Positions 4,508 to 63,367 of a stretch of DNA of 64,000 nucleotides are shown here, piece after piece. The position numbers and the translations under genes are program-made. Positions within the stretch are counted from its first letter, which is position 1; each line of letters opens with the position of its first letter. This DNA is from Nitrososphaerota archaeon (lineage in GTDB: Archaea; Thermoproteota; Nitrososphaeria_A; Caldarchaeales; Wolframiiraptoraceae), in the NCBI GenBank assembly GCA_021159365.1, contig JAGGRY010000036.1, forward strand, positions 4,840-68,839, read 5' to 3'. The notes below the pieces were generated by a model. It had not been told where the DNA came from. It did not search any database and worked only from the letters and a program-made list of their open reading frames with translations.

Positions 4508-4572
4508 CGCGGCATCAACACACTCCCTTAGAGCTGATACATTTTAGAAGGAAGTTATTAATTTTCAAAAAG

Positions 4573-4647
4573 CGGGCCCGGTGGGATTTGAACCCACGAT
4601 CTGCGGCTTAGGAGGCCGCCGCCTTATCCATGCTAGGCCACGGGCCC
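4573..4647 (-). tRNA. tRNA-Arg (anticodon CCU)
   Basis: The reverse complement folds as a cloverleaf: GGGCCCG-TG-GCCT..AGGC-G-GCGGC-CTCCTAA-GCCGC-AGATC-GTGGG-TTCAAAT-CCCAC-CGGGCCC-G. Anticodon loop CU-CCU-AA. No encoded CCA. Confidence 0.9.
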
Positions 4648-5374: not shown

Positions 5375-8250
5375 TCCGCATATATCCCTGGTCTAAGCGG
5401 CAAGGCCGATGAAGCCTTCTTCTTAGGATCATAGAGGCCTTCTTCATCCTCGGAGTGCACCTCGAATTCTATACCCAACTCGCTCGTCAAGAACTCTGAC
5501 GCGGACTTGTAGATGTCAAGTTCCCTTTCAGCCGCGGCCATGAGATCTTCAAATCGATAATTCTGGATTAGTGATGAAATGTTTTCGATCATGAGCTTCG
5601 CGAGATTTGCGGCGATCTTCTTGAGCTCCGGCTTATTCGAGATGATCCACTTAATCAGCTCTCCGATCTCTCTGCTTCTTCCCTCTTTTAACAGATTTAG
5701 GGTTCTTTCGAGTAGACCGCGCTTCCAGTCTGACGCTACATAGATGTATACTTTTTTGGGCTTCTCCTTAATCACGTTGATTATGCTTCTAATATCTTCC
5801 ATTAATCTCATGATGAGTTCTTCAGCTAGCTCAGCTTCAGGATTGATCAGTTCTCCCCTCGGAGCTGGCCATTTCTCAACCGAGACGAATCCACTTTTTC
5901 CGAGGATGCTCCAAGCTTCCTCCGCCGTGAAGGGGATGAATGGTGCTAGAAGTTTTATCCATGTCTCGATGAATTCTCTCCCAATCTTACTGATTGAGCC
6001 GCCGGTTCTCCTGATATACCATCTCCAATCGTTATATAGGCCGTAGAGGGCGTCGTGGAAGGCTTTCCTCGTTTTGAGGTTCTCCATCCACTCGGTTATG
6101 TTCTCGATTCTTCTCTGAAGTCTTGACATAAGCCATGAATCAACCGCATTTTCTTCGACGAGTTCAGCCGAGGCAACCTCTCTAACGATTCTCAAAAGCT
6201 GATTTATCATATTCTTTATTTCTATCGCATTTCTCTCCCTCCAATCTGGATCGTCGAGATCTTCTGCGGCTAGGAGTAGGGTTGCTCTCGTCACGTCTGC
6301 GCCATACTTCATTATCGCCTTCTTTAATGGGATGAAGTTTCCCCTGCTCTTAGACATCTTTTCACCCTCGATGTTCACCATTCCATTAACTCCCACGCCC
6401 CTTGGCCAATGTCTTTCCTCGAAGATCGCGACGTGATTGAATATGTAGAAGGTTAGGTGGTTTGGAACGAGTTCTTTCGCCGAAATTCTCATATCAACTG
6501 GATACCAGTATAGGAATTCCTCCCTCATCTTCTTCAACAAATCTACATCAACGCCGACTTTCTTCGCGACTTCCTCTACATTGCCTAGTCCTAGGAAGAC
6601 ATAGTTTAGGACATCTAAGGTTAATTGATCCGGCTTGATGAGATTTAGATTTGGATATTTGCTTATCGTGTAAAGGGCTGGATAGAGCGTTGAGTCGCTC
6701 AAGGTTTCGACGATCCATTCCGGATCCCATGGAAGCCTAGTTCCCAATCCCGTCTTTCTCGTACACGCCCAATCTCTAAGCCAATCGACCACGTTGAGGA
6801 ACCATTGTCTAGCTTCCTCTGGATAGATCTCCATCTTCATCAGATGTTTTCTTACCTTTTCCTTCCATTCTGGATCGGAATATCTTAGAAACCATTGATT
6901 CTCCACTATCTTAACCACGTTCTCGGTTCCACATCTACATACAACCTTCTCTGGAAGCTCCCACATAATATCCCCTAATCCCAACTCTATTAGCTTGGCC
7001 TTCACCAGGTCTCTGGCCTCATTCACACTCTTCCCGGAATATTCTCCGCAATTTTCCTTCATGATTCCTTCATGGAATTCTTTAGAGTATATGGTCTTGG
7101 TCGCCTCCTCAAGCCTCGAATCGGTATCGGTCTTTATTCCAAGTCTCTCAACTTCCTCAACCGCCGGATAATCACCGTATCCTGGAACCCTGATTATCGA
7201 GATAGGCTTAATCTTCTCAACGATTTCCTTTAATCCATATCTCCTCAATCTCTCCTCATTGGATCTCAACGCTATAACTCCGGCGTAATCGTAGGGGGCG
7301 TGGGCTGGAACGCTGTAAACAACTCCGGTTCCAAAGTTCGGGTCAACTAAATCTGCTGGAAGTATTGGAACGGGCTTTCCGATTAAAGGGGCTTCCGCAT
7401 ACTTTCCGATGAGATCCTCGGGCTTCACGGATCCCAAGATCTTTACATTCTTTTGTTCCCTCAATTTCTCGGCAGCCCTCTTCGAGACAATATACTTCTT
7501 TCCATCAACTTCCGCTAATGCGTATTCATGATTTGGATTGATCCAGATGTTCGTCACTCCGAAGACTGTTTCAGGTCTAAGAGTTGCGGCTGCTAGATAT
7601 GCGTCGTTAAACTTGAAGAGGACTAATACATATTCTTCAGGCGACACACCTTCTCCAATGAGTCTATCATGGTCTCCGGTCGCGCTCTTACAGTTCGGAC
7701 ACCAAACCACTGGATGCTTGCCGATGGCTACGTATCCGCGATTCTTCAAGGTTATGAATTGCCATTGAATGAATCTGCTATAATATGGATGTAGGTCTGT
7801 TGTGTAGAATTCTCTCCTCCAGTCAACGGAGAATCCCATGGCGTCGACTACAACCTTATTCTCTTCTGTGTAGTATTTTGTCACGAAGACTGGGTCGGTG
7901 AATTTTTCCAAAAGCTCCTCTGGGACGCCATCTATCTCAATGAGCATTCTCCTGATGGATTCGTCTCCCCGCTTCAATCTCTCAGAAGTCCCGGCCACAG
8001 CCTCTCCAGTCCAATGCCAAGCCCATGGAAACAGCACATTATAGCCTTGCATCCGCTTGAATCTCGCATAGGCGTCTCCCCTCGTATAGGTGAATCCATG
8101 GCCTAGGTGGAGTGGTCCATTCTGATATGAGTAGGGGACGCAGATGAAGTATTTCGGCTTAGATGGGTCTGGATCTGCTTCGAAGATCTTCGCCTCCTTC
8201 CATCTCTTAATCCACTTCTCCTCATAATCTATTGGAGACCTAGTCTCCAT
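5371..8250 (-). CDS. leuS: Leucyl-tRNA synthetase (archaeal type)
   Basis: 959 aa. HIGH-type motif (PLHLGHGFTY), KMSKS present (GEKMSKSRGN), and a large CP1 editing insertion. Confidence 0.92.
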   Translation of the reverse strand: METRSPIDYEEKWIKRWKEAKIFEADPDPSKPKYFICVPYSYQNGPLHLGHGFTYTRGDAYARFKRMQGYNVLFPWAWHWTGEAVAGTSERLKRGDESIRRMLIEIDGVPEELLEKFTDPVFVTKYYTEENKVVVDAMGFSVDWRREFYTTDLHPYYSRFIQWQFITLKNRGYVAIGKHPVVWCPNCKSATGDHDRLIGEGVSPEEYVLVLFKFNDAYLAAATLRPETVFGVTNIWINPNHEYALAEVDGKKYIVSKRAAEKLREQKNVKILGSVKPEDLIGKYAEAPLIGKPVPILPADLVDPNFGTGVVYSVPAHAPYDYAGVIALRSNEERLRRYGLKEIVEKIKPISIIRVPGYGDYPAVEEVERLGIKTDTDSRLEEATKTIYSKEFHEGIMKENCGEYSGKSVNEARDLVKAKLIELGLGDIMWELPEKVVCRCGTENVVKIVENQWFLRYSDPEWKEKVRKHLMKMEIYPEEARQWFLNVVDWLRDWACTRKTGLGTRLPWDPEWIVETLSDSTLYPALYTISKYPNLNLIKPDQLTLDVLNYVFLGLGNVEEVAKKVGVDVDLLKKMREEFLYWYPVDMRISAKELVPNHLTFYIFNHVAIFEERHWPRGVGVNGMVNIEGEKMSKSRGNFIPLKKAIMKYGADVTRATLLLAAEDLDDPDWRERNAIEIKNMINQLLRIVREVASAELVEENAVDSWLMSRLQRRIENITEWMENLKTRKAFHDALYGLYNDWRWYIRRTGGSISKIGREFIETWIKLLAPFIPFTAEEAWSILGKSGFVSVEKWPAPRGELINPEAELAEELIMRLMEDIRSIINVIKEKPKKVYIYVASDWKRGLLERTLNLLKEGRSREIGELIKWIISNKPELKKIAANLAKLMIENISSLIQNYRFEDLMAAAERELDIYKSASEFLTSELGIEFEVHSEDEEGLYDPKKKASSALPLRPGIYAE

Positions 8251-8350
8251 TCAATCCATCACCCAAAGCGCTCAAACCAAATGAATCGAGGGCCATATTT
8301 AAGCAAAGCAAGACTATAATTTAACAACGATAAACTTTAGCCGAAGAAGA

Positions 8351-8425
8351 GGGCCCGTAGCCTAGTTTGGATATGGCGCCGGCCTTCGGAGCCGGAGGTC
8401 CGGGGTTCAAATCCCCGCGGGCCCA
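8351..8425 (+). tRNA. tRNA-Arg (anticodon UCG)
   Basis: Cloverleaf GGGCCCG-TA-GCCT..-CCGGC-CTTCGGA-GCCGG-AGGTC-CGGGG-TTCAAAT-CCCCG-CGGGCCC-A. Anticodon TCG. Confidence 0.9.
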
Positions 8426-8438
8426 CTTAACTTCTTCT

Positions 8439-9899
8439 TTAGGGTTTTAGTCCTGTCAGTAGCTGGCTTGGTGGATGAGGCCATTCACCTCTTCCATCCC
8501 AGATGCTTAGGAGGATGAAGGTTCTAGTTAGCATGCTATGATTCCAGTCCGGCATCCTCCAGTAGACGTCGAGTTCGACTAGATATGTTCTTTGATCAGC
8601 ATTTTGAGGGGCTTTAATCGATAATGGCACGTTGATCGATGAACCATTTTTAGCTACCGCCTCGGAAGGGGGAGATACCAGCTCCTTTGGAATGCCTTGA
8701 TCTCCAAGCGGATCAACTACCTCAAAGCTCAGAATAACGTCGGAGACGATGTTGATTGGTTTAATCTCTAGATCTATCTTACCGGACTCCCCGGGCTTAA
8801 CGATGACGACGTTTTCGATTATCAGCGGGAAGCATGAGAGCCGTATTATAGGCTTGATCAAAGAGTCTTCAGGTGGAGGGAACTCGTATGCGAACTTAGG
8901 GCATACCGTGATCGTCATGTTTTCGACCTCCAGATTCTCCGCCGAGCTGTAGTTTAATCTGGCGAAGACCGTTTGCCACTTCATACTCGGTAGCGTTGTG
9001 TAGTAGGTTGCGGCCGCCACTTCGCCCGTCTCGGCATCCACGAGAAAGCTTCCAACAGGATATGTCAGGTTTCCATTTCTGATATTTTCCCCAGAGAGTA
9101 TAATGAACCAATAGAGCCTATACTTGTTGATGAATTTCGGATCGACTGGGCTTTGTAATAATAGGTTCTTCGCGTCCGGGCTTATCCTCGCTATCCTGAG
9201 ATCTATTAACCTGACTGCGCCTTTCCTGAGAAGCTGGACTGGGATATTTGGGATATTCGATGATCTCAGGATCTCTATGGCTTGGGATGAGTTTATTCTT
9301 AGGTTGAAGCTCGCGTTACTTGGCGGGAGATCCTCCTCATACTTAGATACCTGCCTTGCTACGCCTTTGAAAGCGTCCACGGTTACCTCGATATCCGAGT
9401 AGTCTCCAAAGCCTCCCCAGATCCAATATCCCTTAAATGTCCTGACGAAATGGAGGGACCAAGTCGGCTCAATCAGTAGGCTTCCATTGACTACGTGGCC
9501 TGGGCTGAAATATGCGCTGACGAGCTTATAGTTTTGCGGAGTTATATTCGCGGCCTTGGAGGCGATCTCTAGGGCTTCCTCTAGATCTATCGCGGGCATC
9601 TTAAGATAGCCTAGCCGGTAGTGGATGGGGTGGTCGCCGAGATAATGATAGGATACCGTGTAGTTTGGGCTTTGAGGGTTCCAGCTCATCCTCGGATAGC
9701 CGAGCTCCTCGTAGATTTCTCCAACATCTAGGAAGCCAGCTACATCTTCGCGGGCTTCTTGGGAGCTCATCCGGCTTACACTGCTGGTTTCCGAAGGCGG
9801 CTGGCTGGTTGGTGATTGGGTTAAGCCTAGGTAGAGGATTGAGATTGTTGATAAGGTTATCAGCAGAACGATGAGTAAAGTCCACCTCGCCCTCATCAC
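8439..9899 (-). CDS. Secreted or membrane-anchored hypothetical protein (486 aa)
   Basis: N-terminal signal anchor (WTLLIVLLITLSTISILYLGL) followed by a Ser/Pro-rich linker. Many N-x-S/T sequons (NYT, NGS, NAS, NSS, NLT, NYS, NMT, NHS). No catalytic motif recognised. Confidence 0.55.
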   Translation of the reverse strand: MMRARWTLLIVLLITLSTISILYLGLTQSPTSQPPSETSSVSRMSSQEAREDVAGFLDVGEIYEELGYPRMSWNPQSPNYTVSYHYLGDHPIHYRLGYLKMPAIDLEEALEIASKAANITPQNYKLVSAYFSPGHVVNGSLLIEPTWSLHFVRTFKGYWIWGGFGDYSDIEVTVDAFKGVARQVSKYEEDLPPSNASFNLRINSSQAIEILRSSNIPNIPVQLLRKGAVRLIDLRIARISPDAKNLLLQSPVDPKFINKYRLYWFIILSGENIRNGNLTYPVGSFLVDAETGEVAAATYYTTLPSMKWQTVFARLNYSSAENLEVENMTITVCPKFAYEFPPPEDSLIKPIIRLSCFPLIIENVVIVKPGESGKIDLEIKPINIVSDVILSFEVVDPLGDQGIPKELVSPPSEAVAKNGSSINVPLSIKAPQNADQRTYLVELDVYWRMPDWNHSMLTRTFILLSIWDGRGEWPHPPSQLLTGLKP

Positions 9900-29315: not shown

Positions 29316-29451
29316 GATTCAGGTCAGTTAACGATTTGGTTAAAGATAAGCCTTACAGCTCGAAAAACGTCGAAATCATACCTAGAAAATCCGACAACAA
29401 GATACAAACCAAATACAAAAGAAATTAAGGATCAAAAACTGATGAATAAAT

Positions 29452-29526
29452 GGGCCCGTGGCCTAGCATGGATAAGGCGCCGGCCTCCGGAGCCGGAGAA
29501 CCCGGGTTCAAATCCCGGCGGGCCCG
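29452..29526 (+). tRNA. tRNA-Arg (anticodon CCG)
   Basis: Cloverleaf GGGCCCG-TG-GCCT..-CCGGC-CTCCGGA-GCCGG-AGAAC-CCGGG-TTCAAAT-CCCGG-CGGGCCC-G. The 5' half is nearly identical to the tRNA-Arg(CCU) at 4573-4647. Confidence 0.9.
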
Positions 29527-29547
29527 AATACTTCCGTAATTTTTTAG

Positions 29548-35156: not shown

Positions 35157-35229
35157 GCCCCGGTAGCTCAGCGGGTAGAGCGGCGGCCTCGTAAGCCGCA
35201 GGCCGCGGGTTCAAAGCCCGCCCGGGGCT
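35157..35229 (+). tRNA. tRNA-Thr (anticodon CGU)
   Basis: Cloverleaf GCCCCGG-TA-GCTC-AGCGGGTA-GAGC-G-GCGGC-CTCGTAA-GCCGC-AGGCC-GCGGG-TTCAAAG-CCCGC-CCGGGGC-T. Confidence 0.9.
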
Positions 35230-35308
35230 CATCCAAGAAATTTTGTGAGCATGAGGATCGATGTGATTTTTATGAATCTAATCATTCAATAAGAGAGCAT
35301 TTGAGCAA

Positions 35309-46779: not shown

Positions 46780-47079
46780 TCAGCCACCCCAGCTCGATAG
46801 ATGATCTGGCAGAATTGTGAGAATCTTCTGCTTATTTCCAAGCCTAACTCCTACGACATAGGCTCTTCCCCTCTTTCCGAGGATCTCGCCTATCTTCCCA
46901 TGATATCTTCGATGAGGCATTCCCTTATGAACCGCTGGATTTATCTTTATGGCGACCTTATCTCCCACCTTAAATTCTCTTAGATAAATCTCCGGATTAG
47001 GGCCTTGCCTCGAGCCCTTCGGCTTCGTCAACACGTCCCTAGACTTATACCTAAATCCCTTTGATTTCGGCATTCCCAA
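46780..47079 (-). CDS. rpl21e: 50S ribosomal protein L21e
   Basis: MPKSKGFRYKSRDVLTK...FKVGDKVAIKINPAVHKGMPHRRYHGKIGEI pattern. Confidence 0.9.
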   Translation of the reverse strand: MGMPKSKGFRYKSRDVLTKPKGSRQGPNPEIYLREFKVGDKVAIKINPAVHKGMPHRRYHGKIGEILGKRGRAYVVGVRLGNKQKILTILPDHLSSWGG

Positions 47080-47130
47080 CCATTTTTAAGGTATAGGCGA
47101 TTTAAAAAGCTTTAAGAACAGAGCATCCGC

Positions 47131-47760
47131 TCAGCTTCTCGCAAGTTTCTCCTTAAACTTCTTGATGACCGAGCTTAATGAGGGTGGTAGTAAGTTCTCT
47201 TCATCGATCTCGACTTCCTCAATTCTCCTAGGAGTTCCCAAATATTTGAGTTCGACGAGCTCCATTCCCTGGATGGTGCTTTCTAAGACTTTCCTCCTAT
47301 GGATCCCTATCGTGGTTCTGACCTGAACCACTCTTCCTCTTCTATCAAGTCTAAAGACCTTAAACTTTAGATCTCTAAGCTTCCTAGTCTTCGCATAGCT
47401 TACTGGATCCACGACTAATGCGACGGCCTTCGGGAACATCATCTGATACCTCTTCTGAGTCTCGATGTCTATCGCCGATAGAAATAAGCTGAATCCCGGA
47501 TGAGAGTGATACCATCCAACTATGTATAATCCAGGTCTATTTCTCAAAACCCAATCCGCTGCGGCAGCTATCGTATTTTCATCTAGATAGACGAATCCAG
47601 AGGTGGCTCTCTGCGCTCCAGTTACAGCATCCCATATCTCTAAGATGTCATTTTTCTTAAGATATTTTCCTATTAGGAGTCCAGCGACTTCTCTCTCAAG
47701 GTTGCTCAAGGTGTGTTTGATCACTTTCCCGATTGCAAGTGGATAAATCCTCGCCCTCAT
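47131..47760 (-). CDS. JAB1/MPN/Mov34 (JAMM) metalloprotease, Rpn11-like putative deubiquitylase
   Basis: Upstream Glu (EVAGLLIG) and an intact JAMM motif HSHPGFSLFLSAID (H-x-H-x7-S-x2-D). Divergent from the Ub-like gene. Confidence 0.85.
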   Translation of the reverse strand: MRARIYPLAIGKVIKHTLSNLEREVAGLLIGKYLKKNDILEIWDAVTGAQRATSGFVYLDENTIAAAADWVLRNRPGLYIVGWYHSHPGFSLFLSAIDIETQKRYQMMFPKAVALVVDPVSYAKTRKLRDLKFKVFRLDRRGRVVQVRTTIGIHRRKVLESTIQGMELVELKYLGTPRRIEEVEIDEENLLPPSLSSVIKKFKEKLARS

Positions 47761-47895
47761 CTCAACTTATGTTAAACTCTCATGAGGATGGATTTAATGT
47801 TACCTATCCCATTCAACGAGGGTTTACCAAGTAATCTCATGGTATCTTATCGAAGATTTCTCCAGGATTCTTGTAGACTGCCTTACACTTAATAC

Positions 47896-47902
47896 TTATA
47901 TA
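47896..47902 (+). promoter_or_regulatory. TATA-like box (TTATATA) about 40 nt upstream of the Ub-like start codon
   Basis: Read directly. A GGTG SD-like element lies at 47931-47934. Located in the 182-bp divergent spacer between the JAMM and Ub genes. Confidence 0.4.
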
Positions 47903-47942
47903 GAGTGTATCAAAGGGTTTAAGACGGATTGGTGTAGAGCGT

Positions 47943-48179
47943 ATGAAGATAAAGGTTGTCCCCGCAATCGGTGGAGGCAGTCCAATAGAGCTTGAAGTTT
48001 CCCCAACGACCACGATAGGCGCGATAAGGGCGAAGGTATGCGCCATGAAGAGGCTTCCACCGGACACCACCAGATTAACTTATAGGGGTAGAGCGCTAAA
48101 AGATGTTGAAACTCTAGCATCTCTCGGAGTACAGGATGGAGACAAGCTTGTATTGATAACGAGAACTGTTGGAGGCTAG
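47943..48179 (+). CDS. Ubiquitin-like protein ending in -RTVGG immediately before the stop
   Basis: 78 aa: MKIKVVPAIGGGSPIELEVSPTTTIGAIRAKVCAMKRLPPDTTRLTYRGRALKDVETLASLGVQDGDKLVLITRTVGG. It aligns by eye along its full length with eukaryotic ubiquitin (MQIFVKT..ITLEVE..DTI..VKAKI....IPPDQQRLIF.GK.LED..TL..Y.IQ..S.LHLVLRLRGG). Confidence 0.9.
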   Translation: MKIKVVPAIGGGSPIELEVSPTTTIGAIRAKVCAMKRLPPDTTRLTYRGRALKDVETLASLGVQDGDKLVLITRTVGG

Positions 48180-48202
48180 GCTACATCAACATAGATTCAC
48201 TC

Positions 48203-48214
48203 AAAAATATTTTT
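48203..48214 (+). terminator. AAAAATATTTTT element (oligo-T tract) 24 nt after the Ub stop; possible intrinsic archaeal terminator/attenuator
   Basis: Seen in the sequence. Archaeal termination commonly uses oligo-T tracts. It sits in a 125-bp spacer before the E2 gene. Confidence 0.3.
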
Positions 48215-48304
48215 AGGGAAGATATATCTCCAAACAAAGATTACGTGAATATTTCGTGAGAATGATCATTAACGATCCTTTAGGTTAAGGTTAATTACCC
48301 GGTT

Positions 48305-48805
48305 TTGAACCTCTATCTAATGGCTTTGCTGGCAGAACTCCCTGAGCCGCTATGGTATAAGAGGCTCGCGATCGAGTATAAGCTGATACATGAGCATGAA
48401 CCATTATTCGATATAGTTGAAGGTGATTTAACGCACTATGAGGGGGTTCTAATAGGCTCAGGGCTCTATGAAGGTGGATATTTTAGAGTTGAGATAATTC
48501 TATCGAGGAGCTTTCCATTCGTTCCGCCGAAAGTCATCTGGTGGACTAGGATATGGCATCCGAACTTCACCGATGAGGTTCCGGCGAGGATCTGCGAATC
48601 CATCTTTAAGGATGATTGGAAGCCCCCTCTCCACCTGATAACGGTTATAGGGGCTTTGAGAAATCTCTTGAATAATCCGAATCCAGACGATCCATTAAAC
48701 ACGATAGCGGCGATGGAGATGAAGTTTAGGCCAGACATATTTAAGGCAAGGGTTAGGCAATATATTGAGCTCTATGCAAGACCTGAAAAATCGTTAATAA
48801 AGTAA
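48305..48805 (+). CDS. Ubiquitin-conjugating enzyme (E2, UBC fold)-like protein
   Basis: HPN motif (IWHPNF), candidate catalytic Cys in VPARICESIFKDDWKPPL, and downstream LLNNPNPDDPLN, the same order as in eukaryotic UBC cores. The ATG at 48320 is the more likely start. Confidence 0.85.
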   Translation: MNLYLMALLAELPEPLWYKRLAIEYKLIHEHEPLFDIVEGDLTHYEGVLIGSGLYEGGYFRVEIILSRSFPFVPPKVIWWTRIWHPNFTDEVPARICESIFKDDWKPPLHLITVIGALRNLLNNPNPDDPLNTIAAMEMKFRPDIFKARVRQYIELYARPEKSLIK

Positions 48806-48818
48806 AATAGATGGCTTC

Positions 48819-50042
48819 ATGAAATCTAGTCGAATGTCGGGTTCCAATGAGGCTGAGCTCACTGGTGAATTGCTGGAGCGATATGATAGACAACTTAGGC
48901 TTAAGGGATGGGATCAGAAAAAGCTGATGGATTCTGAGGTGATTATAGTTGGCGTGGGAGCGATAGGATGTGAATTGGCCAAGAATCTCACGTTAATGGG
49001 TGTTGGAAAAATAGTCTTGGTGGATAATGATGTAATCGAGTTATCGAATCTGAATAGGCAGATGCTCTTTACAGATTCAGATATTGGGAAACCTAAGGCT
49101 GAGGTAGCGGCTGAAAAGCTCAAGACCATGAATCCATGGGTGAAAGTTGAATCATACTATAGGGATGTTAGAGAGTTCGATCTAAAGTTCTTCGAAGACT
49201 CAAACGTCCTCGTATCATGCCTCGATAACTGGCCCACTAGGAGATGGTTGAACTCGCTCGCCGTTGAGCTCAATAAACCATTCGTCGACACGGCCATGGA
49301 TGGAATGTATGCGAATCTCCAGATAGTCATCCCGGGGAAGACCGCTTGTCTCGAATGTCATGGAGAGGAGCTTATACCGAAAGAGGTTCAGCTCGCTGAA
49401 TGTACCTTGAGGAGAAGGAAGCCTGAAGATTTGCTTAAGGATTTAAAATCCGAGGGAATAGATCTCAGCCTTGAGACTGTTAAGAAGCTATTCGATTACG
49501 GCATAAAGACCATATTTGACATAAAGTATTCTCAAGCGGATATACTCGAAAAACTTGACGATGATTTAAGAAATGTTGTCATGGATCTTCAGGAGAAACT
49601 TAAGCCTAAGATGCCGGCGCTTCAAAGCATCGCTTCCACGGTCGCTGGAATAGCATCAACAGAGATAATCAAGATCCTCCATGGAGAATCTCTAGGAGAA
49701 ATTCTTAATGGTTTACTTGTTTATGATGGATTCAACTCCAAGTTCACAATCGTCGAGCTTGAGAGGAGAGAAGACTGCTTTGTATGCGGAGATTATGTCA
49801 TGGAGAAAGGAGTGGAGTTCAAGGTAAGGCTTGAAGACACGATCATGGAGCTGAAGAAGAGGATAGCTGAGAGATTCGGCTTCCCAGATCCAGAACTATT
49901 ATATAAGAAGTGGAAGCTAAGCGATGAGAAGAAGGTCTCTGAGCTTGGAATCAAGTCCGGGGACGTGATCTATGTCGAGACCAGTAGAAGATATACGCCT
50001 CTCCCACTTAGGATAGAGGTTGAAGAGAGAGTAAACGATTAA
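48819..50042 (+). CDS. Ubiquitin-activating enzyme (E1)-like ThiF/MoeB/UBA-family adenylyltransferase with C-terminal beta-grasp-like domain
   Basis: YDRQLRL, Rossmann GVGAIGCELAKNL, SNLNRQ, Zn-site pairs CLEC and CFVCG. The C-terminal 80 aa (VEFKVRLEDTIMELKKRIAERFGFP...GDVIYVE) looks like a ubiquitin-fold domain. Confidence 0.85.
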   Translation: MKSSRMSGSNEAELTGELLERYDRQLRLKGWDQKKLMDSEVIIVGVGAIGCELAKNLTLMGVGKIVLVDNDVIELSNLNRQMLFTDSDIGKPKAEVAAEKLKTMNPWVKVESYYRDVREFDLKFFEDSNVLVSCLDNWPTRRWLNSLAVELNKPFVDTAMDGMYANLQIVIPGKTACLECHGEELIPKEVQLAECTLRRRKPEDLLKDLKSEGIDLSLETVKKLFDYGIKTIFDIKYSQADILEKLDDDLRNVVMDLQEKLKPKMPALQSIASTVAGIASTEIIKILHGESLGEILNGLLVYDGFNSKFTIVELERREDCFVCGDYVMEKGVEFKVRLEDTIMELKKRIAERFGFPDPELLYKKWKLSDEKKVSELGIKSGDVIYVETSRRYTPLPLRIEVEERVND

Positions 50043-50050
50043 TATAATGG

Positions 50051-50335
50051 TTGAGATCATATCGAATTGATGCGAGATTGGTGAGAAGGCTCATCCTTAG
50101 AGAACCGGTCTGCAAGGGCTTCTGGGATCCATGGCAAGCCGATGAACAGGTCCTAAAGCCTCCGGAGAGACGTAGACCCGAAAGAGTATGCCAGATATGC
50201 TTATCCGAGATAGAGGAAGGCGTTCCCTACATAGAATGTCCACACTGCGGGAACCCGATGCATAAAAGCTGTCTTGAGAATTGGGTAAGAGTTAAGGGCA
50301 ACGTATGCCCAGTTTGCGGCAGACCCTTACCCTGA
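50051..50335 (+). CDS. Small RING-finger protein (candidate E3)
   Basis: CQIC-x12-CPHC-x4-H-x2-C-x11-CPVC (C4HC3 ligand pattern). There is no in-frame ATG upstream of the finger (TTG 50051 or GTG 50081), so the start is uncertain. Confidence 0.7.
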   Translation: MRSYRIDARLVRRLILREPVCKGFWDPWQADEQVLKPPERRRPERVCQICLSEIEEGVPYIECPHCGNPMHKSCLENWVRVKGNVCPVCGRPLP

Positions 50336-50381
50336 ATTATACTTAAGCGTTAGAATTTTCATTAAAAATTGGTGATGAGGG

Positions 50382-50732
50382 ATGGGGGAGGAAGAGGAGA
50401 TAGAGATTCGACCAAGCTATTTGGAGACTCCAGGCGGGAAAAGGGTAGCGACTTACGAGTTTGCAATGAGCTTGGCGAAGGCCATAAAGATAATGTATGA
50501 GGATGATCTCAGTAAGCTTGAGGAGAGGGTGAATAAGTTGGAGGAAGCGGCCAAGATATTCCAAGAATTTGAATCTAGGCTCAGTAATATGGAGAAGTCT
50601 CTCGACGAGCTTGAAAGGAGGCTTGAATTAGATCTCGGAGATATATCAGATAAGCTTTCAGCGTTGATAGACGCTTTTCATGAGCTTGCAGAGAAGGTTG
50701 AGAGATTAGAGGATGTTTTAGCTAGGGGCTGA
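50382..50732 (+). CDS. Coiled-coil protein (116 aa), function unknown
   Basis: A heptad-rich acidic sequence (LEERVNKLEEAAKIFQEFESRLSNMEKSLDELERRLE...). A GGTGATGAGGG SD-like sequence precedes the ATG. Confidence 0.55.
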   Translation: MGEEEEIEIRPSYLETPGGKRVATYEFAMSLAKAIKIMYEDDLSKLEERVNKLEEAAKIFQEFESRLSNMEKSLDELERRLELDLGDISDKLSALIDAFHELAEKVERLEDVLARG

Positions 50733-51555
50733 GAAAGGCTCGACGCATATCCGCTAAGATCCTCTCAAGATTTCCTCTCCTCTCCTCGAGCTCCTTTATC
50801 TCAGCTTCAAGTCTACGCTTTCTCTCGGTTAAGACATTCAATTCTCCCCGCAGTCTGGTAACCTCTTTTTCAAGCTTTTCAGCTTCCATCTCCCTTTCTT
50901 TGAGTTTTGCGATGGCGTCCTTCAGCTCCGCTTCTCTCCTGACAAGTCTTTCCAGTCTTATCTCTCTTAGTCTGAAGTCCCTCAATATTCCTTTGGCTAC
51001 CTCCTCAAACTTGTTCTTCATCTCTTCAAGTCCCTTTAGGTAACGCTCCGAAAGCTCGTTGATCTTACTTTCAAGCTCCATTCTTTTATTTTCAAGGTCT
51101 CTAAGCTCAGCCTCCCTTAGATCCAGTTCTCTCTCTTTTTTCTCAAGTTCATCTCTCCACTTCTTTATCTCCTCGCGCATTATCATCAATTCATCTCTCT
51201 CCTTTCTCAAAGCCTCGATCTGACGTCTAACTTCATCTCTCTCCCTGCTCAAGTTATCGACTATGTCCTTGATTCCCTCTTGAACTGAGAGCAACGTGTT
51301 TTCATAATATCTAACTATAGTCAATTCTTCCGCAACCTTCTCCGCGCTATTGAGGAATGTCTCTAGCTTTGACTTAATTATCTCCGGCTGAGCTGCGACT
51401 TCTTGAGTTAGATTGAGTAAGTTCACAAGCTTATCCTCGATCCTTGAGAGAGATTCATCGAGCTTTGAAGATAACGACTCCTCCAGCCCACCGATCTTCT
51501 CGGAAATCGACTTCTCAAGCTCCTCAAACTTGTCCTTCTTCGTGAAGAGACTCAT
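50722..51555 (-). CDS. Long coiled-coil protein (277 aa), function unknown
   Basis: Nearly continuous E/K/R/L heptads over about 250 aa. Convergent with the previous gene and overlapping it by 11 nt. Confidence 0.55.
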   Translation of the reverse strand: MSLFTKKDKFEELEKSISEKIGGLEESLSSKLDESLSRIEDKLVNLLNLTQEVAAQPEIIKSKLETFLNSAEKVAEELTIVRYYENTLLSVQEGIKDIVDNLSRERDEVRRQIEALRKERDELMIMREEIKKWRDELEKKERELDLREAELRDLENKRMELESKINELSERYLKGLEEMKNKFEEVAKGILRDFRLREIRLERLVRREAELKDAIAKLKEREMEAEKLEKEVTRLRGELNVLTERKRRLEAEIKELEERRGNLERILADMRRAFLSP

Positions 51556-51666
51556 CTTCCCTCAAATCCTAGATTATGAAATATAAAAACTGTTTCCTTA
51601 TGGAGTTTAATGGAACTCTTATAAAAAGCCGTGTAGAAACCCTTCTAGAGAGGTGGAGATGAGAGA

Positions 51667-52398
51667 GTGATAGTCAGCCAAGAGGAGGTTATGGCCAGAT
51701 TCTATAAGGTTGGATCGACTGCGGCGGCGATCGGAGCAATACATATCCTAACCCTATTACTTGCTTGGTACGTTCAAACCGATGCAGGCTCCATAACCGA
51801 GCTTGCTGGATACGTTTTTCCAGAGTCGTTGATGTTATCGCTTATTGGCGGATTGATGGCTGGAATAGGTCTATTGGTAGGCCATATACTCAAGAAGCTT
51901 AAATCCATCAAGTATTCGATTGGAGTTCTCACCGTGATCGGTGGATTGATGGCGATCTCATCCCCAATCTACGTCTATCTTGAACGAATCTTGGCCTTAG
52001 GGATCAAAGGTTATCCAACCATGGGATTCTTCGCCGCGATCTTCACAGGAATAATTCAGCTCGGCATAGGATCTTTAGCCCTCTTAACGCCGATCAAAGA
52101 AGAAGTCGTGCCCATTTCTCAACCGCCAGCCCCGGCTCCGGTTCCAGCGGTCACACCAGCCCCAGCTCAGCCTCCGATTCCAAGAGCTCCCTCTGGAAGG
52201 GGTAGAGGGGCGACTACCAGAATTCTGCCGGCTCCAGATCTTGAAGAAGCTGTCTGCAGTATATGTTATGAGCCTATACCGGTGGGAGAGGCCATGAGGT
52301 GCGCGAACTGTGACGCTGTATTTCATAGAGGATGTATTGAAGCTTGGATGAGTCTTAATGGGACTTGCCCGATCTGTAAAGCGGTCGTCGTGAGTTAG
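51667..52398 (+). CDS. Four-TM membrane protein with Pro/Ala-rich linker and C-terminal RING finger (membrane-anchored E3 candidate)
   Basis: There are 4 hydrophobic segments and a linker PISQPPAPAPVPAVTPAPAQPPIPRAP. The finger is CSIC-x11-CANC-x4-H-x2-C-x10-CPIC, the same ligand spacing class as the small RING at 50051. The likely start is the ATG at 51691, after GAGGAGGT. Confidence 0.7.
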   Translation: MIVSQEEVMARFYKVGSTAAAIGAIHILTLLLAWYVQTDAGSITELAGYVFPESLMLSLIGGLMAGIGLLVGHILKKLKSIKYSIGVLTVIGGLMAISSPIYVYLERILALGIKGYPTMGFFAAIFTGIIQLGIGSLALLTPIKEEVVPISQPPAPAPVPAVTPAPAQPPIPRAPSGRGRGATTRILPAPDLEEAVCSICYEPIPVGEAMRCANCDAVFHRGCIEAWMSLNGTCPICKAVVVS

Positions 52399-52427
52399 CA
52401 TATATTTTGATGTAGCATGAAAATTGA

Positions 52428-53912
52428 ATGGTGCGTGGAGCGATGAGCCAGAGAAGTAAATATGAGCTGGTCATGAGGCTCGCGCTTGAGAGAGGCTTCT
52501 TCATGCCATCATCCGAAATCTATGGAGATGCTCCAGCGGGATTCTGGGACTATGGCCCACTCGGAGTCTCCTTAAAGAATAGATTCATAGAACTTTGGAG
52601 AAGAGAACTCGTTAAGAGGGATGATATGCTTGAGATAGATGGCGCTCAAATACTCTCTAAAAGCGTGTTTAAGGCATCAGGTCATCTCGAGAGCTTTGTA
52701 GATCCGATCGCTAAATGTAGTAAATGTAGGGCGATCTACAGATTGGACAAGTTGATCGAAGAGAAGACTGGAATCCACGTCCCTGAGCGAGCAAGCCTAG
52801 AAGACATGAAAAAGATAATTGAGGAACATGGAATAAGGTGTGGTAGATGTGGAGGCGAGTTAACAGACTTCTCTCATTTCAACATGATGTTCAGGATCGG
52901 AGTCGGCGTGGCCGAGTTGGATGCATATTTGAGACCTGAGACATGTCAAAGCATCTTCATAGATTTCATGAGAATCTATAAGACCATGAGGAGAAAGCTC
53001 CCATTCGCGATAGCTCAAGTTGGAAAGAGCTTTAGAAATGAGATCTCGCCCAGACAGGGGCTTCTACGAATGAGAGAATTCTATCAAGCTGAGATAGAGG
53101 TATTCTTCAACCCAAAAAAGGCGAATGTCTTTGCGAAAGCGGATCCCATCCTAGATTATAAGCTTAGACTGCAGCCGATTGGAGAAGATTCTGTTAAAGA
53201 CATATCGTGTAGGGATGCTTTGAACTCTGGATTGATTTCGAGTAAACTCGTCGCATATTATCTGGCCCTAATCCAGCAATTTTATGAGAAGGCAGGAATT
53301 CCCAGGGAAAAGATTAGACTCAGAGAACTGGATGAAGACGAGAGGGCATTCTACGCAGCTGAGGCTTGGGATCTCGAAGTCGAGACGAGTTTAGGCTGGA
53401 TAGAACTCGTCGCATGTAATAATCGAGGCGAACATGATCTGGGAGGTCATGAGAAGTTGAGCGGTCAAGAGATGACCGTTCTCGATGACGGCGAGAGGGT
53501 TTTGCCAAACGTCTTTGAACTCTCAATGGGAATAGATAGAAGCCTCTACTGCATCTTGGAGAACTCCCTACACCTCGTTAACGATAGAATAGTCCTAAAA
53601 CTTCCTCCATATCTCGCACCTATTCAAGCAGCGGTCTTGCCGCTCTTATCGAGAGAACCTTTCACCGATGAGGCCATGAGTGTTTACCGCTCATTAAAGC
53701 AGGATTTCGACGTGGTTTATGACGAGTCTGGAAGTATTGGGAGAAGGTATGCGAGATATGATGAAGTCGGGGTTCCAATGGATATAACGATAGATCATCA
53801 AACCCTAGAAGATAAAACTGTCACGATTAGGTTTAGGGATTCAACGATTCAGCTCAGAGTTCGAGAGAGCGATTTGAGGAATTTCCTAAGAGATCATCTC
53901 AAAGTTGGATGA
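52428..53912 (+). CDS. glyS: Glycyl-tRNA synthetase (archaeal/eukaryotic alpha2 type)
   Basis: 494 aa with class II motifs: FRNEISPRQGLLRMREFYQAE, and GIDRSLY in motif 3. Confidence 0.9.
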   Translation: MVRGAMSQRSKYELVMRLALERGFFMPSSEIYGDAPAGFWDYGPLGVSLKNRFIELWRRELVKRDDMLEIDGAQILSKSVFKASGHLESFVDPIAKCSKCRAIYRLDKLIEEKTGIHVPERASLEDMKKIIEEHGIRCGRCGGELTDFSHFNMMFRIGVGVAELDAYLRPETCQSIFIDFMRIYKTMRRKLPFAIAQVGKSFRNEISPRQGLLRMREFYQAEIEVFFNPKKANVFAKADPILDYKLRLQPIGEDSVKDISCRDALNSGLISSKLVAYYLALIQQFYEKAGIPREKIRLRELDEDERAFYAAEAWDLEVETSLGWIELVACNNRGEHDLGGHEKLSGQEMTVLDDGERVLPNVFELSMGIDRSLYCILENSLHLVNDRIVLKLPPYLAPIQAAVLPLLSREPFTDEAMSVYRSLKQDFDVVYDESGSIGRRYARYDEVGVPMDITIDHQTLEDKTVTIRFRDSTIQLRVRESDLRNFLRDHLKVG

Positions 53913-61502: not shown

Positions 61503-62627
61503 ATGAAGGAGCTTGAGAGACTTGCCGCTGAACATGCGAGGGCAGCCGTTAGACTCGACAAGGTTGGGATGAAGAAGGAGGCTGCTCAAAAATACAAGGA
61601 AGCGATTAGGCTCTTATCGAGGTTAATCGAGCTCACCGATGATTCTATGATGAAGCAGATCTATATGGAGAAGAAGGAGCAATATGAGAGGAGGATAAAG
61701 GACTTAACCGAATCAGTTTATGAAGGATTTCGAGAACTCAGCAAACAGGTTAAGGAATCCGGTTTCGCAAAGGATCTAATCGTCGAGAATCCTCCGCCGA
61801 TAACTTGGGATGACATCATAGGGTTAGATCACGCGAAGAGGGCGATAAGGGAGAGCATAATCTATCCGATGAAGAGGCCGGACCTATTTCCCCTAGGATG
61901 GCCACGGGGGATCCTCTTATTTGGACCACCTGGATGCGGGAAGACGATGTTGGCGGCGGCGGTGGCGAATGAGATCGACGCGGTCTTCATGCATGTTGAC
62001 GCCTCTGTGATCATGTCTAAGTGGCTTGGAGAATCCGAGAAGAATATATCGAATATCTTCAAATCTGCTAGAGAATATGAGGCTCAGGGAAAGGCCGTCA
62101 TAATCTTCATGGATGAGATAGATTCCTTAACGGCGGCGAGGTTGAATGAGGTCGGCGGAGAGGCGAGGGCGAGAAACCAGCTGATAAAGGAGATGGATGG
62201 ATTATTCGATAAAGGTAAGAATACTAGGATCTATGTCCTCGCAGCGACGAATAAGCCGTGGCTCCTCGATAAACCATTCATCAGGAGATTCCAGAAGAGA
62301 ATATTCATAGGTTTACCCGATTATGAGGCAAGGTTGAAGATGTTTGAATACTATGCTAGAAAACTTGATTTAGATGGGAATGTCGAATTCGGGGAACTTG
62401 CGAGGATAACGAACGGATACTCTGGAGCAGATATCTACAATATCTGCATGGAAGTCCAGATGAAGGTTGTTAGCGAGTTCTTTGAGGAAGGGAGTGGAGA
62501 TGAGGGGAAGCCTAGGAAGATTAGGATGGAAGATTTCATGGAGATCATTAGGAAGAGGAAGCCGAGCGTTGATTTAGAATCCATGGAGAAGATGCTTAAA
62601 TGGGCTTCGAAGTATGGGACATCCTGA
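61503..62627 (+). CDS. cdvC: Vps4-like AAA+ ATPase with N-terminal MIT domain (CdvC)
   Basis: MIT-like helices (AAQKYKEAIRLLSRLIELT), Walker A GPPGCGKT, Walker B IIFMDEID, and a C-terminal Vps4 helix. Confidence 0.88.
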   Translation: MKELERLAAEHARAAVRLDKVGMKKEAAQKYKEAIRLLSRLIELTDDSMMKQIYMEKKEQYERRIKDLTESVYEGFRELSKQVKESGFAKDLIVENPPPITWDDIIGLDHAKRAIRESIIYPMKRPDLFPLGWPRGILLFGPPGCGKTMLAAAVANEIDAVFMHVDASVIMSKWLGESEKNISNIFKSAREYEAQGKAVIIFMDEIDSLTAARLNEVGGEARARNQLIKEMDGLFDKGKNTRIYVLAATNKPWLLDKPFIRRFQKRIFIGLPDYEARLKMFEYYARKLDLDGNVEFGELARITNGYSGADIYNICMEVQMKVVSEFFEEGSGDEGKPRKIRMEDFMEIIRKRKPSVDLESMEKMLKWASKYGTS

Positions 62628-62632
62628 CTCCT

Positions 62633-63367
62633 TTATCCAACGAGCTGAATCAGACCTTTTTGCTCAAGCCTCTTCAAAACATCTCTAATCTGATCCTCAT
62701 TTAATCCAAGTTCTCTGGCGCATCTCTTGAGATCGAGTTCCTCATCACTGGCCGAGATATATGAATAGACGAGCTTCTCCTCTTCACTGAGCTTTGGAAC
62801 ATCTGGGAATGCATCCTTAACTCTTTCAGCGGCCTTCTTCTGAGCTTCCTCTAAGATCTTCGACGCCTCGGCATCCAACTCTTTAGGAACCTGAACGATC
62901 TCTTCTCCAGCCTCAGACATGGATGTGAAATCCTCTATACATGATGCTAGCTCCCGAAGACTTTCAGCCGCCTCTGGAGCAACGCCTCTCACCTCGTCCT
63001 CAACCTCCGCCACTAACGAGATCAATGGAATCAGGAGTCCTAGAACATCGCTTATCTCGAGAATAGTCTCGAGTCTGAGCTTGACTTGTTCGAGGACTAG
63101 TTGGGTTTTAACTATTATTCCCGCTAATCTCCTTATTTCGGCGATCTCTTCGGCGTAGATTGAAGCCCTATTCTCATCTCCATTCATTAACGCTTGAACT
63201 ACTTCTTCAAAGTATTCCTTACTCCTTGCCACCATTTCACCATATTTTGATCTGAGCTTTATTATCTGGGCGCTTAACTGGTTGAGCGAATGCTCAAGTT
63301 TTAGCTTAAGTCTTTCTCTCGCCTTCTCGTCGAACAGTGATTCATCGAAATCTCCCTGATTAACCAT
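62633..63367 (-). CDS. cdvB: ESCRT-III homologue with C-terminal winged helix (CdvB)
   Basis: An ESCRT-III helical core followed by LVYSYISASDEELDLKRCARELGLNEDQIRDVLKRLEQKGLIQLV, a wH domain as in crenarchaeal CdvB. Confidence 0.8.
   Translation of the reverse strand: MVNQGDFDESLFDEKARERLKLKLEHSLNQLSAQIIKLRSKYGEMVARSKEYFEEVVQALMNGDENRASIYAEEIAEIRRLAGIIVKTQLVLEQVKLRLETILEISDVLGLLIPLISLVAEVEDEVRGVAPEAAESLRELASCIEDFTSMSEAGEEIVQVPKELDAEASKILEEAQKKAAERVKDAFPDVPKLSEEEKLVYSYISASDEELDLKRCARELGLNEDQIRDVLKRLEQKGLIQLVG

Follow-up and report, generated by a model that had tools for sequence, protein, structure and literature searches.

An orthologue of the Caldiarchaeum subterraneum ubiquitylation operon in a Wolframiiraptoraceae archaeon, with ubiquitin encoded in its mature form

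Five adjoining genes at positions 47131-50335 of a 64,000-nucleotide (nt) contig sequence from a Wolframiiraptoraceae archaeon (Caldarchaeales, formerly Aigarchaeota; the whole stretch is hereafter the window) encode a JAMM protease on the opposite strand, followed by ubiquitin (Ub), a ubiquitin-conjugating enzyme (E2), a ubiquitin-activating enzyme (E1) and a small RING finger protein (srfp; Table 1). The host is a hot-spring or vent archaeon, and the cassette genes are real and intact. An earlier note on this DNA had read the five as a minimal ubiquitin cycle; the open reading frame (ORF) list of the window places them as described, and all five proteins exceed the gathering cut-offs of the Pfam ubiquitin, UQ_con, ThiF, JAB and RING models, as that note had proposed to check. 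The observation is thus confirmed as real and correctly read, and identifies an orthologue of a biochemically characterised system from the same order, that of Candidatus Caldiarchaeum subterraneum. The cassette differs from it mainly in encoding its Ub ready to use.

Table 1. Genes and intergenic regions of the cassette and its downstream neighbours, in window positions (aa, amino acids; E, E-value)
Feature	Position	Strand	Match or remark
Rpn11-like JAMM/MPN+ metalloprotease, 209 aa	47131..47760	-	PF01398 JAB 63.6 bits, E 1.9e-17
Divergent intergenic region JAMM/Ub	47761..47942		182 bp, read directly
Ub, 78 aa	47943-48179	+	PF00240 ubiquitin 53.5 bits, E 2.1e-14
Ub-E2 spacer, ~140 nt	48180..48319		AT-rich, oligo-T run
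E2, 161 aa	48320..48805 (longest ORF from TTG 48305)	+	PF00179 UQ_con 89.5 bits, E 1.9e-25
E1, 402 aa	48834..50042 (longest ORF from ATG 48819)	+	PF00899 ThiF 214 bits, E 1.8e-63
Small RING finger protein (srfp, E3-like), 85-94 aa	50051..50335	+	PF13639 zf-RING_2 38.8 bits, E 1.2e-9
Coiled-coil protein CC1, 116 aa	50382..50732	+	candidate accessory gene
Coiled-coil protein CC2, 277 aa	50722..51555	-	candidate accessory gene, convergent with CC1
Membrane RING protein, 243 aa	51667..52398	+	zf-RING_2 40.7 bits, above gathering score; candidate second E3

The modifier ends in RTVGG immediately before the stop, because the DNA at 48171-48179 reads GGA GGC TAG; the claim that it needs no precursor processing therefore follows from a direct reading, and marks a genuine difference from the characterised system. 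Residues 12-78 are aligned by HMMER to residues 10-76 of human Ub, and global identity to the human sequence is 29/76 (38%), bearing out an alignment with eukaryotic Ub that had been proposed by eye. The closest structures are those of C. subterraneum Ub (CsUb; PDB codes 6FJ7 and 2MQJ, E ~1e-39). Lysines K4, K53 and K68 are conserved relative to C. subterraneum, as is T46, the residue mutagenised in PMC5654768; this threonine occupies the Ile44 position of the hydrophobic patch of eukaryotic Ub.

Gene starts were taken from public gene calls on near-identical contigs, giving an E2 of 161 aa (ATG 48320), an E1 of 402 aa (ATG 48834) and an srfp of 85 aa (TTG 50078), against the longest mechanical ORFs of 166, 407 and 94 aa, respectively. 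The E2 carries H80-P81-N82 and C92 (161-aa numbering), all invariant in 20 homologues, and matches E2-25K/UBE2K in the PDB (E 3e-23). Its AlphaFold2 (AF2) model (pLDDT 92.1) adopts the UBC fold and is superimposed by Foldseek on the UbcH5 family with TM scores of 0.80-0.88 and a root mean square deviation of 1.6-2.0 Å, in agreement with the earlier assignment from the HPN motif and cysteine context.

The E1 combines adenylation and inserted helical Cys domains with a Zn site formed by two CxxC pairs and, at its C terminus, a ubiquitin-fold domain (UFD), the last seen as a PF00240 ubiquitin-family match (31.8 bits, aa 331-389); the two CxxC pairs and the β-grasp-like C terminus had both been pointed out before. 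In the 407-aa numbering its motifs are GxGxxG 45-50, NLNRQ 77-81, C177xxC180, C195 in ECTLRR, and C320xxC323; in the 402-aa numbering, shared by the best database match, which is also 402 aa long, catalytic C190 and Zn ligands C172, C175, C315 and C318 are invariant in 34 homologues. PDB searches rank Uba1 (E 1.6e-44) and UBA3 (E 5e-39) ahead of ThiF (1.8e-28), and ECTLRR aligns to the Uba1 motif PLCTLRS, which contains the Uba1 catalytic cysteine. The AF2 model (pLDDT 86.8, pTM 0.83) matches UBA3 over its full length (Foldseek E 2e-28, TMq 0.69-0.72, ~420-450 columns), with ThiF and MoeB aligning to the adenylation core only (~315 columns). As a single short chain without a second pseudo-subunit, the E1 presumably acts as a homodimer.

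The RING finger holds eight Zn ligands (C47-x2-C50-x12-C63-x2-C66-x4-H71-x2-C74-x11-C86-x2-C89), of which the third and fourth depart from their canonical positions, a shift also noted in srfp of C. subterraneum. The earlier identification as a RING protein holds, whereas its length of 94 aa is that of the longest ORF and gives way to 85 aa in the public calls. In the PDB its nearest relatives are RING-H2 ligases of eukaryotes, with EL5 first (E 4e-6) and RNF13, Arkadia, RLIM and synoviolin after it, and I49 and W78 are conserved, corresponding to the E2-binding I30 and W58 of the C. subterraneum protein that were mutagenised in PMC5654768.

The divergently transcribed JAMM protein retains an intact site (E24, H85-S-H87-x7-S95-x2-D98), as had been claimed for its H-x-H-x7-S-x2-D motif. 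It scores better against Pfam JAB than against Prok-JAB (63.6 versus 35.7 bits), and its PDB matches begin with C. subterraneum Rpn11 (CsRpn11, 6FJU, E 2e-62), followed by yeast and human Rpn11 (E ~1e-18) and CSN5. On the HxHx7Sx2D motif and its greater nearness to Rpn11 and CSN5 than to prokaryotic JAB, it belongs to the Rpn11-like group.

Global identities to C. subterraneum were computed against its locus in our survey (L041), whose mature Ub is identical to that of 2MQJ/6FJ7; they are 81% for Ub, 66% for E2, 53% for JAMM, 50% for E1 and 43% for srfp. The gene order that the earlier note had given for this organism is exactly that of its operon, rpn11l <-> ubl-e2l-e1l-srfp, Csub_C1473-1477 (Nunoura 2011, PMC3082918; also PMC5654768). 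Its E1/E2/RING cascade has been reconstituted, and the 87-aa pro-Ub proved refractory to E1 unless nine residues had been taken off by Rpn11 or the protein had been truncated at GG (Hennell James 2017, PMC5654768). The CsRpn11-CsUb structure has been solved and precursor cleavage analysed, CsRpn11 cleaving both the precursor and conjugates (Fuchs 2018, PMC6043591).

The cassette sits among ordinary archaeal housekeeping genes (L21e, Rpo4/F, DUF655, KsgA, L10e, RNase H, Sua5, Cgi121 and GlyRS), and its guanine-plus-cytosine (GC) content of 0.441 matches that of the window (0.455). Gaps of 8-46 nt between E2, E1, RING and CC1 make a compact operon. Promoters for both JAMM and Ub presumably lie within their divergent intergenic region. 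Rfam and tRNA scans of the window place no RNA element inside the cassette, and no Rfam family besides tRNAs reaches its gathering score. The cassette sequences are already public at NCBI: JAMM, Ub and the membrane RING protein are exact matches to proteins from a metagenome-assembled genome labelled Nitrososphaerota/Thaumarchaeota archaeon, and cluster mates of the window proteins belong to Candidatus Wolframiiraptor sp. The exact Ub sequence is deposited as 'hypothetical protein' (MCD6126231.1, OYT67879.1, RLG03623.1) and occurs on 122 contigs of the collection.

When species-representative genomes were scanned with an E2 alignment, 75 loci came back, 70 of them in species-level genomes of Caldarchaeales (Wolframiiraptor, Benthortus, Geocrenenecus, Terraquivivens, Pelearchaeum, Caldarchaeum, Calditenuis and others) and five in Asgard archaea (Jordarchaeia/Freyarchaeota, L071-L075). 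Hua et al. (PMC6053391) reported the system in all six Aigarchaeota bins that they analysed. The description of the system as rare in archaea is therefore apt for the domain as a whole and fails within its own order. In a neighbour-joining tree of E2 plus E1 the window groups with loci L001 and L002, sister to Benthortus/Geocrenenecus inside Wolframiiraptoraceae; because the cassette is kept in 70 Caldarchaeales genomes and the tree follows families, the pattern fits vertical inheritance under selection. The layout of Ub, E2, E1 and small RING with JAMM on the opposite strand is shared by the C. subterraneum locus and by most Caldarchaeales loci outside Calditenuaceae on long enough contigs. 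Calditenuaceae loci (L048-L065) stop after E1, with no srfp, coiled-coil ORFs, membrane RING or GlyRS within 6 kb, and eight of them also have no adjacent JAMM gene.

Several loci depart from these layouts. After E2, neither Geocrenenecus huangii (L010, 6174-12009) nor KUA_Bin06 (L007, after 1833) has an E1 or RING gene within 6 kb; the former has a HypC-like 97-aa ORF and several large ORFs there, so that its operon appears split, with that of its congener G. dongiae (L067) intact. Insertions separate E2 from E1 in Terraquivivens tikiterensis (L024, ~2.0 kb, 6507-8518, with ORFs of 159 and 322 aa inside it, both on the minus strand) and T. ruidianensis (L033, ~0.9 kb). In Jordarchaeia, three different RING proteins lie just downstream of Ub-E2-E1 (L072 7693-9682, L075 7689-9803): one of 286-293 aa with two weak E2/UEV-like regions, one of 235-240 aa with a HELGH motif, and a 74-aa small RING.

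The mature end of the window Ub was set against the 68 Caldarchaeales loci that have both Ub and E2. Ub stops at GG in 33 of the 68, and the remaining 35 carry tails of 1-20 residues without conserved sequence. Tail and gene overlap go together: at 31 of the 35 tailed loci the Ub ORF and the E2 start share 11-55 nt, whereas 32 of the 33 tail-less ORFs are separated from E2 and one overlaps it (Fisher p = 7e-14, without phylogenetic correction). All Calditenuaceae are tail-less, with a Ub-E2 gap of 2-5 nt, and all Caldarchaeaceae are tailed and overlapping. Within Wolframiiraptoraceae the tree has the tail-less, spacer-bearing state arising separately in the genus Wolframiiraptor and in the clade of the window, whose nearest relatives have 8-aa tails and an overlap. 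The stop after GG is TAG in the window and TGA, at the same position, in L001 and L002; a 90%-identity cluster mate of the Ub reads GG-LATSS, and the window downstream of GG would read LATST if its stop were a Leu codon. Because the stop codons differ and this mate nearly equals the downstream translation of the window, the tail state is evolutionarily labile. The Ub-E2 spacer is 76-78% identical to those of L001 and L002, the only matches found, and a search across the window gave no second copy. Adjacency of JAMM was considered as a correlate of the tail and rejected, the relation not being clean: Pelearchaeum and L051 are tailed without an adjacent JAMM, and many tail-less loci retain one. 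In the literature searched we found no description of GG-stop variants, of the tail/overlap relation or of the transmembrane (TM) RING in these archaea, which does not prove that none exists.

We conclude that this cassette represents, in the Wolframiiraptoraceae lineage, the orthologue of the C. subterraneum ubiquitylation operon and most likely works alike, with a probability of roughly 0.88. The earlier note had named three findings that would count against it, namely a modifier of MoaD/ThiS type, an E2 without the UBC fold or a reactive cysteine, and near-identity to a characterised operon; none was found, the proteins being 43-81% identical to those of C. subterraneum. Several observations do weigh on the other side. 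The activities of all five proteins are assigned by orthology throughout. Two E2 loops are altered (loop 7 WKPP versus WSPS in C. subterraneum, loop 4 PF versus PY), and the start of srfp is uncertain (TTG 50051 or TTG 50078). In srfp, Gly directly follows the last RING cysteine (C89-G90-R91), as against Arg-Arg in C. subterraneum; if the position after the eighth ligand is that of the linchpin arginine, this residue is missing here. A bacterial-type (sigma-70) promoter and terminator scan of 47000-52600, uninformative for archaea, allowed no promoter or terminator to be assigned, with 4 promoter-like sites versus 7.8 expected and terminator-like sites also below shuffled controls.

As an orthologue of the C. 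subterraneum system, the cassette would operate as follows. Ub is translated as 78 aa with the Gly77-Gly78 carboxylate already free, as its sequence shows. By homology to the C. subterraneum enzyme, for which this has been shown, the E1 would bind ATP through its Rossmann-type GxGxxG/NLNRQ motifs, adenylate Gly78 and take up Ub as a thioester on Cys195 of its inserted Cys domain. The C-terminal UFD of the E1 would recruit E2, and Ub would pass to E2 Cys92 beside the HPN loop. The srfp would then bind E2~Ub and promote transfer to substrate lysines, and chains could form on Ub K4, K53 and K68, both as shown in vitro for C. subterraneum, with the Rpn11-like JAMM expected to take Ub off conjugates. 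As the Ub has no propeptide, the Rpn11 maturation step would be unneeded, so that JAMM would serve as a deubiquitinase only and the cascade would run without proteolytic licensing. More speculatively, the ~140-nt spacer may let Ub be expressed separately from the enzymes.

Downstream of the cassette lie CC1, CC2 and a membrane RING protein with TM-like segments at residues 15-37, 53-76, 83-105 and 119-143, a Pro-rich linker and a C-terminal RING (197-237). These might extend the functional unit to eight genes, with the four-TM RING as a second, membrane-anchored E3 using the same E1, E2 and Ub on membrane or membrane-proximal proteins, a reading that we consider possible but rather doubtful. 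In its favour, the membrane RING passes the zf-RING_2 gathering score with its four TM-like segments, and shares the unusual ligand spacing of srfp (C-x2-C-x11/12-C-x2-C-x4-H-x2-C-x10/11-C-x2-C in common); NCBI names it 'E3 ubiquitin protein ligase', its full-length homologues are seen only in Caldarchaeales-type genomes, the clade that bears the cassette, and two RING proteins are mentioned for C. subterraneum (PMC6043591). The order RING-CC1-CC2-membrane RING is kept in Wolframiiraptoraceae and Caldarchaeum, the C. subterraneum locus included, down to protein identities of 34% (CC2) and 40% (membrane RING), and CC1 follows RING in most Wolframiiraptoraceae and some Caldarchaeum loci. Synteny as proof of membership was, however, downgraded by a control: the downstream GlyRS and PhoU-like genes are just as syntenic, so the conserved order may be mere genome collinearity. 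Calditenuaceae, moreover, retain Ub-E2-E1 without these genes nearby. Asgard loci were likewise rejected as independent support for a linkage of membrane RING and CC2, as the tblastn matches reflect RING-domain similarity only, in proteins without TM segments and with other N-terminal domains. CC1 and CC2 have no recognisable domain in Pfam or NCBIfam, returning only generic low-score SMC/Rad50-like coiled-coil matches, and neither these searches nor the synteny control gave support for the coiled-coil proteins belonging to the Ub system. The membrane RING by itself can reasonably be put forward as a candidate second E3. Its N terminus (51667-51951) recurs at 94% identity in residues 1-95 of a 307-aa protein (P0234) that a single ENA contig encodes and that has HisKA and HATPase_c domains after this part instead of the RING; P0234 reflects either a chimeric assembly or a genuine domain swap.

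Joining these strands gives a two-part proposal that we put forward tentatively, and would at present bet against as a whole. It holds, first, that the Ub propeptide has no regulatory purpose and arises as a by-product wherever the Ub ORF extends into the beginning of the E2 gene, lineages in which the two are uncoupled, that of the window among them, making mature Ub and doing without licensing by Rpn11, so that precursor processing would not be general; and second, that the cassette is the core of a larger module with the four-TM RING as a membrane-embedded E3. Were the larger module real, Caldarchaeales would have a membrane-associated branch of ubiquitylation, with the coiled-coil proteins as adaptors or substrates.

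The remaining alternatives concern the nature of the cassette itself. A sulfur-carrier or SAMP/Urm1-like system, in which a MoaD/ThiS-type protein, a MoeB/ThiF-type E1 and JAMM would serve cofactor or tRNA thiolation or E1-only conjugation, is very improbable. The E1 adenylation domain does match ThiF, MoeB and UbaA models at E 1e-37 to 1e-41, all far under curated cut-offs (128 versus 450 bits for the NCBIfam UbaA model, SAMPActivE1UbaA), and JAMM weakly matches the haloarchaeal desampylase model (21 versus 130 bits); yet a UBC-fold E2 and a RING protein are present, the E1 contains both the inserted Cys domain and the UFD of canonical E1s and lies nearer to Uba1/UBA3 than to ThiF, and the modifier matches Pfam ubiquitin, with no ThiS or MoaD family among the matches listed, and shares 81% identity with a protein of solved ubiquitin fold whose conjugation runs through E1, E2 and E3. 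Less probable still is a bacterial-type antiviral system (Bil or CBASS Cap2/Cap3-like) on a mobile or defence island. PADLOC models for E1-E2 (Cap2) reach the E1 adenylation domain at E 1e-22 or weaker and JAB models reach JAMM at E 6e-9 or weaker, with a weak NCBIfam cap2_3 match besides, but no PADLOC model matches the E2, Ub or RING of the window, the E1 is encoded apart from the E2, housekeeping genes (L21e, Rpo4/F, KsgA, L10e, GlyRS) of like GC content surround the cassette, and its chromosomal position stays the same from family to family, its tree agreeing with taxonomy. Eukaryotic contamination or recent transfer from a eukaryote, suggested by a resemblance to eukaryotic Ub, UbcH5/UBE2K, Uba1/UBA3, Rpn11 and RING-H2 ligases above that to typical prokaryotic relatives, is scarcely credible for a compact operon with archaeal flanks of matching composition on the same contig, a Ub at that 38% identity to the human protein, and a presence in 70 related archaeal species.

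Elsewhere in the window, a Vps4/CdvC-like MIT+AAA ATPase (61503-62627, plus strand) lies 9-10 kb downstream of the Ub cassette, convergent with a CdvB-like ESCRT-III protein (62633-63367, minus strand; NCBIfam CdvB E 7e-39, under the curated cut-off); the closeness of this pair to the cassette is probably coincidence. Four tRNA genes lie far from the cassette (4572-4647, 8351-8426, 29451-29527 and 35157-35230), three for tRNA-Arg (CCT, TCG and CCG) and one for tRNA-Thr (CGT).

Among prokaryotic models for how eukaryotic ubiquitylation arose, the archaeal E1/E2/RING/Rpn11 operon is the best, and the copy described here adds no new system type. What is worth keeping is the mature-Ub state and its relation to the Ub/E2 overlap, the membrane RING neighbour, and the closeness to a cultivable relative. 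The C. subterraneum pathway is not fully representative, because about half of the related species encode a ready-to-use Ub. Wolframiiraptor gerlachensis has been grown in enrichment culture (PMC10547907), and because the lineage of the window is close to it, in vivo work may be easier than for C. subterraneum.

Compared with known systems, the cassette is closest to the C. subterraneum operon, sharing the same five genes, their order and orientation, the catalytic residues, the C-terminal ubiquitin-like domain or UFD of the E1 and the shifted RING ligand pattern, together with a downstream series of two coiled-coil ORFs, TM-RING and GlyRS. It differs in its Ub, encoded as the mature 78 aa where CsUb is made as a precursor of 87 aa, the last nine forming a tail, in the ~140 nt between Ub and E2 where the CsUb gene overlaps E2 by 29 nt, and in its upstream neighbours (L21e, RpoF, DUF655 and KsgA), which are absent from Caldarchaeum. 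The five Asgard loci share the Ub-E2-E1 order, have RING proteins nearby and an Rpn11-like JAMM ~1.1-1.7 kb upstream on the opposite strand with other genes between; they are more distant (Ub 35-44%, E2 44-48% and E1 39-41% identity), their Ub ends in GG-F or GG-TLFL, and their RING architectures differ (E2/UEV-like plus RING, HExxH motif plus RING, and a 74-aa RING), none being membrane-embedded. Haloarchaeal SAMP-UbaA-HvJAMM1 resembles the cassette in its β-grasp modifier with C-terminal GG, ThiF-family E1 and JAMM deconjugase, and lacks an E2 and E3, with an E1 devoid of the canonical catalytic-Cys domain and the UFD. Bacterial Bil and CBASS Cap2/Cap3 also encode E1- and E2-type chemistry together with a JAB protease, but with fused or divergent E1-E2, in a defence setting and without RING. 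Eukaryotic Ub and NEDD8 cascades (Uba1 or UBA3-NAE1, UbcH5/UBE2K, RING-H2 E3s and Rpn11) share the folds and catalytic motifs of all five components, the E1 resembling UBA3 in its adenylation domain, Cys domain and UFD; unlike them, the window encodes its genes in an operon, with one E2, one or two E3s and a JAMM protease that is free-standing rather than part of the proteasome lid.

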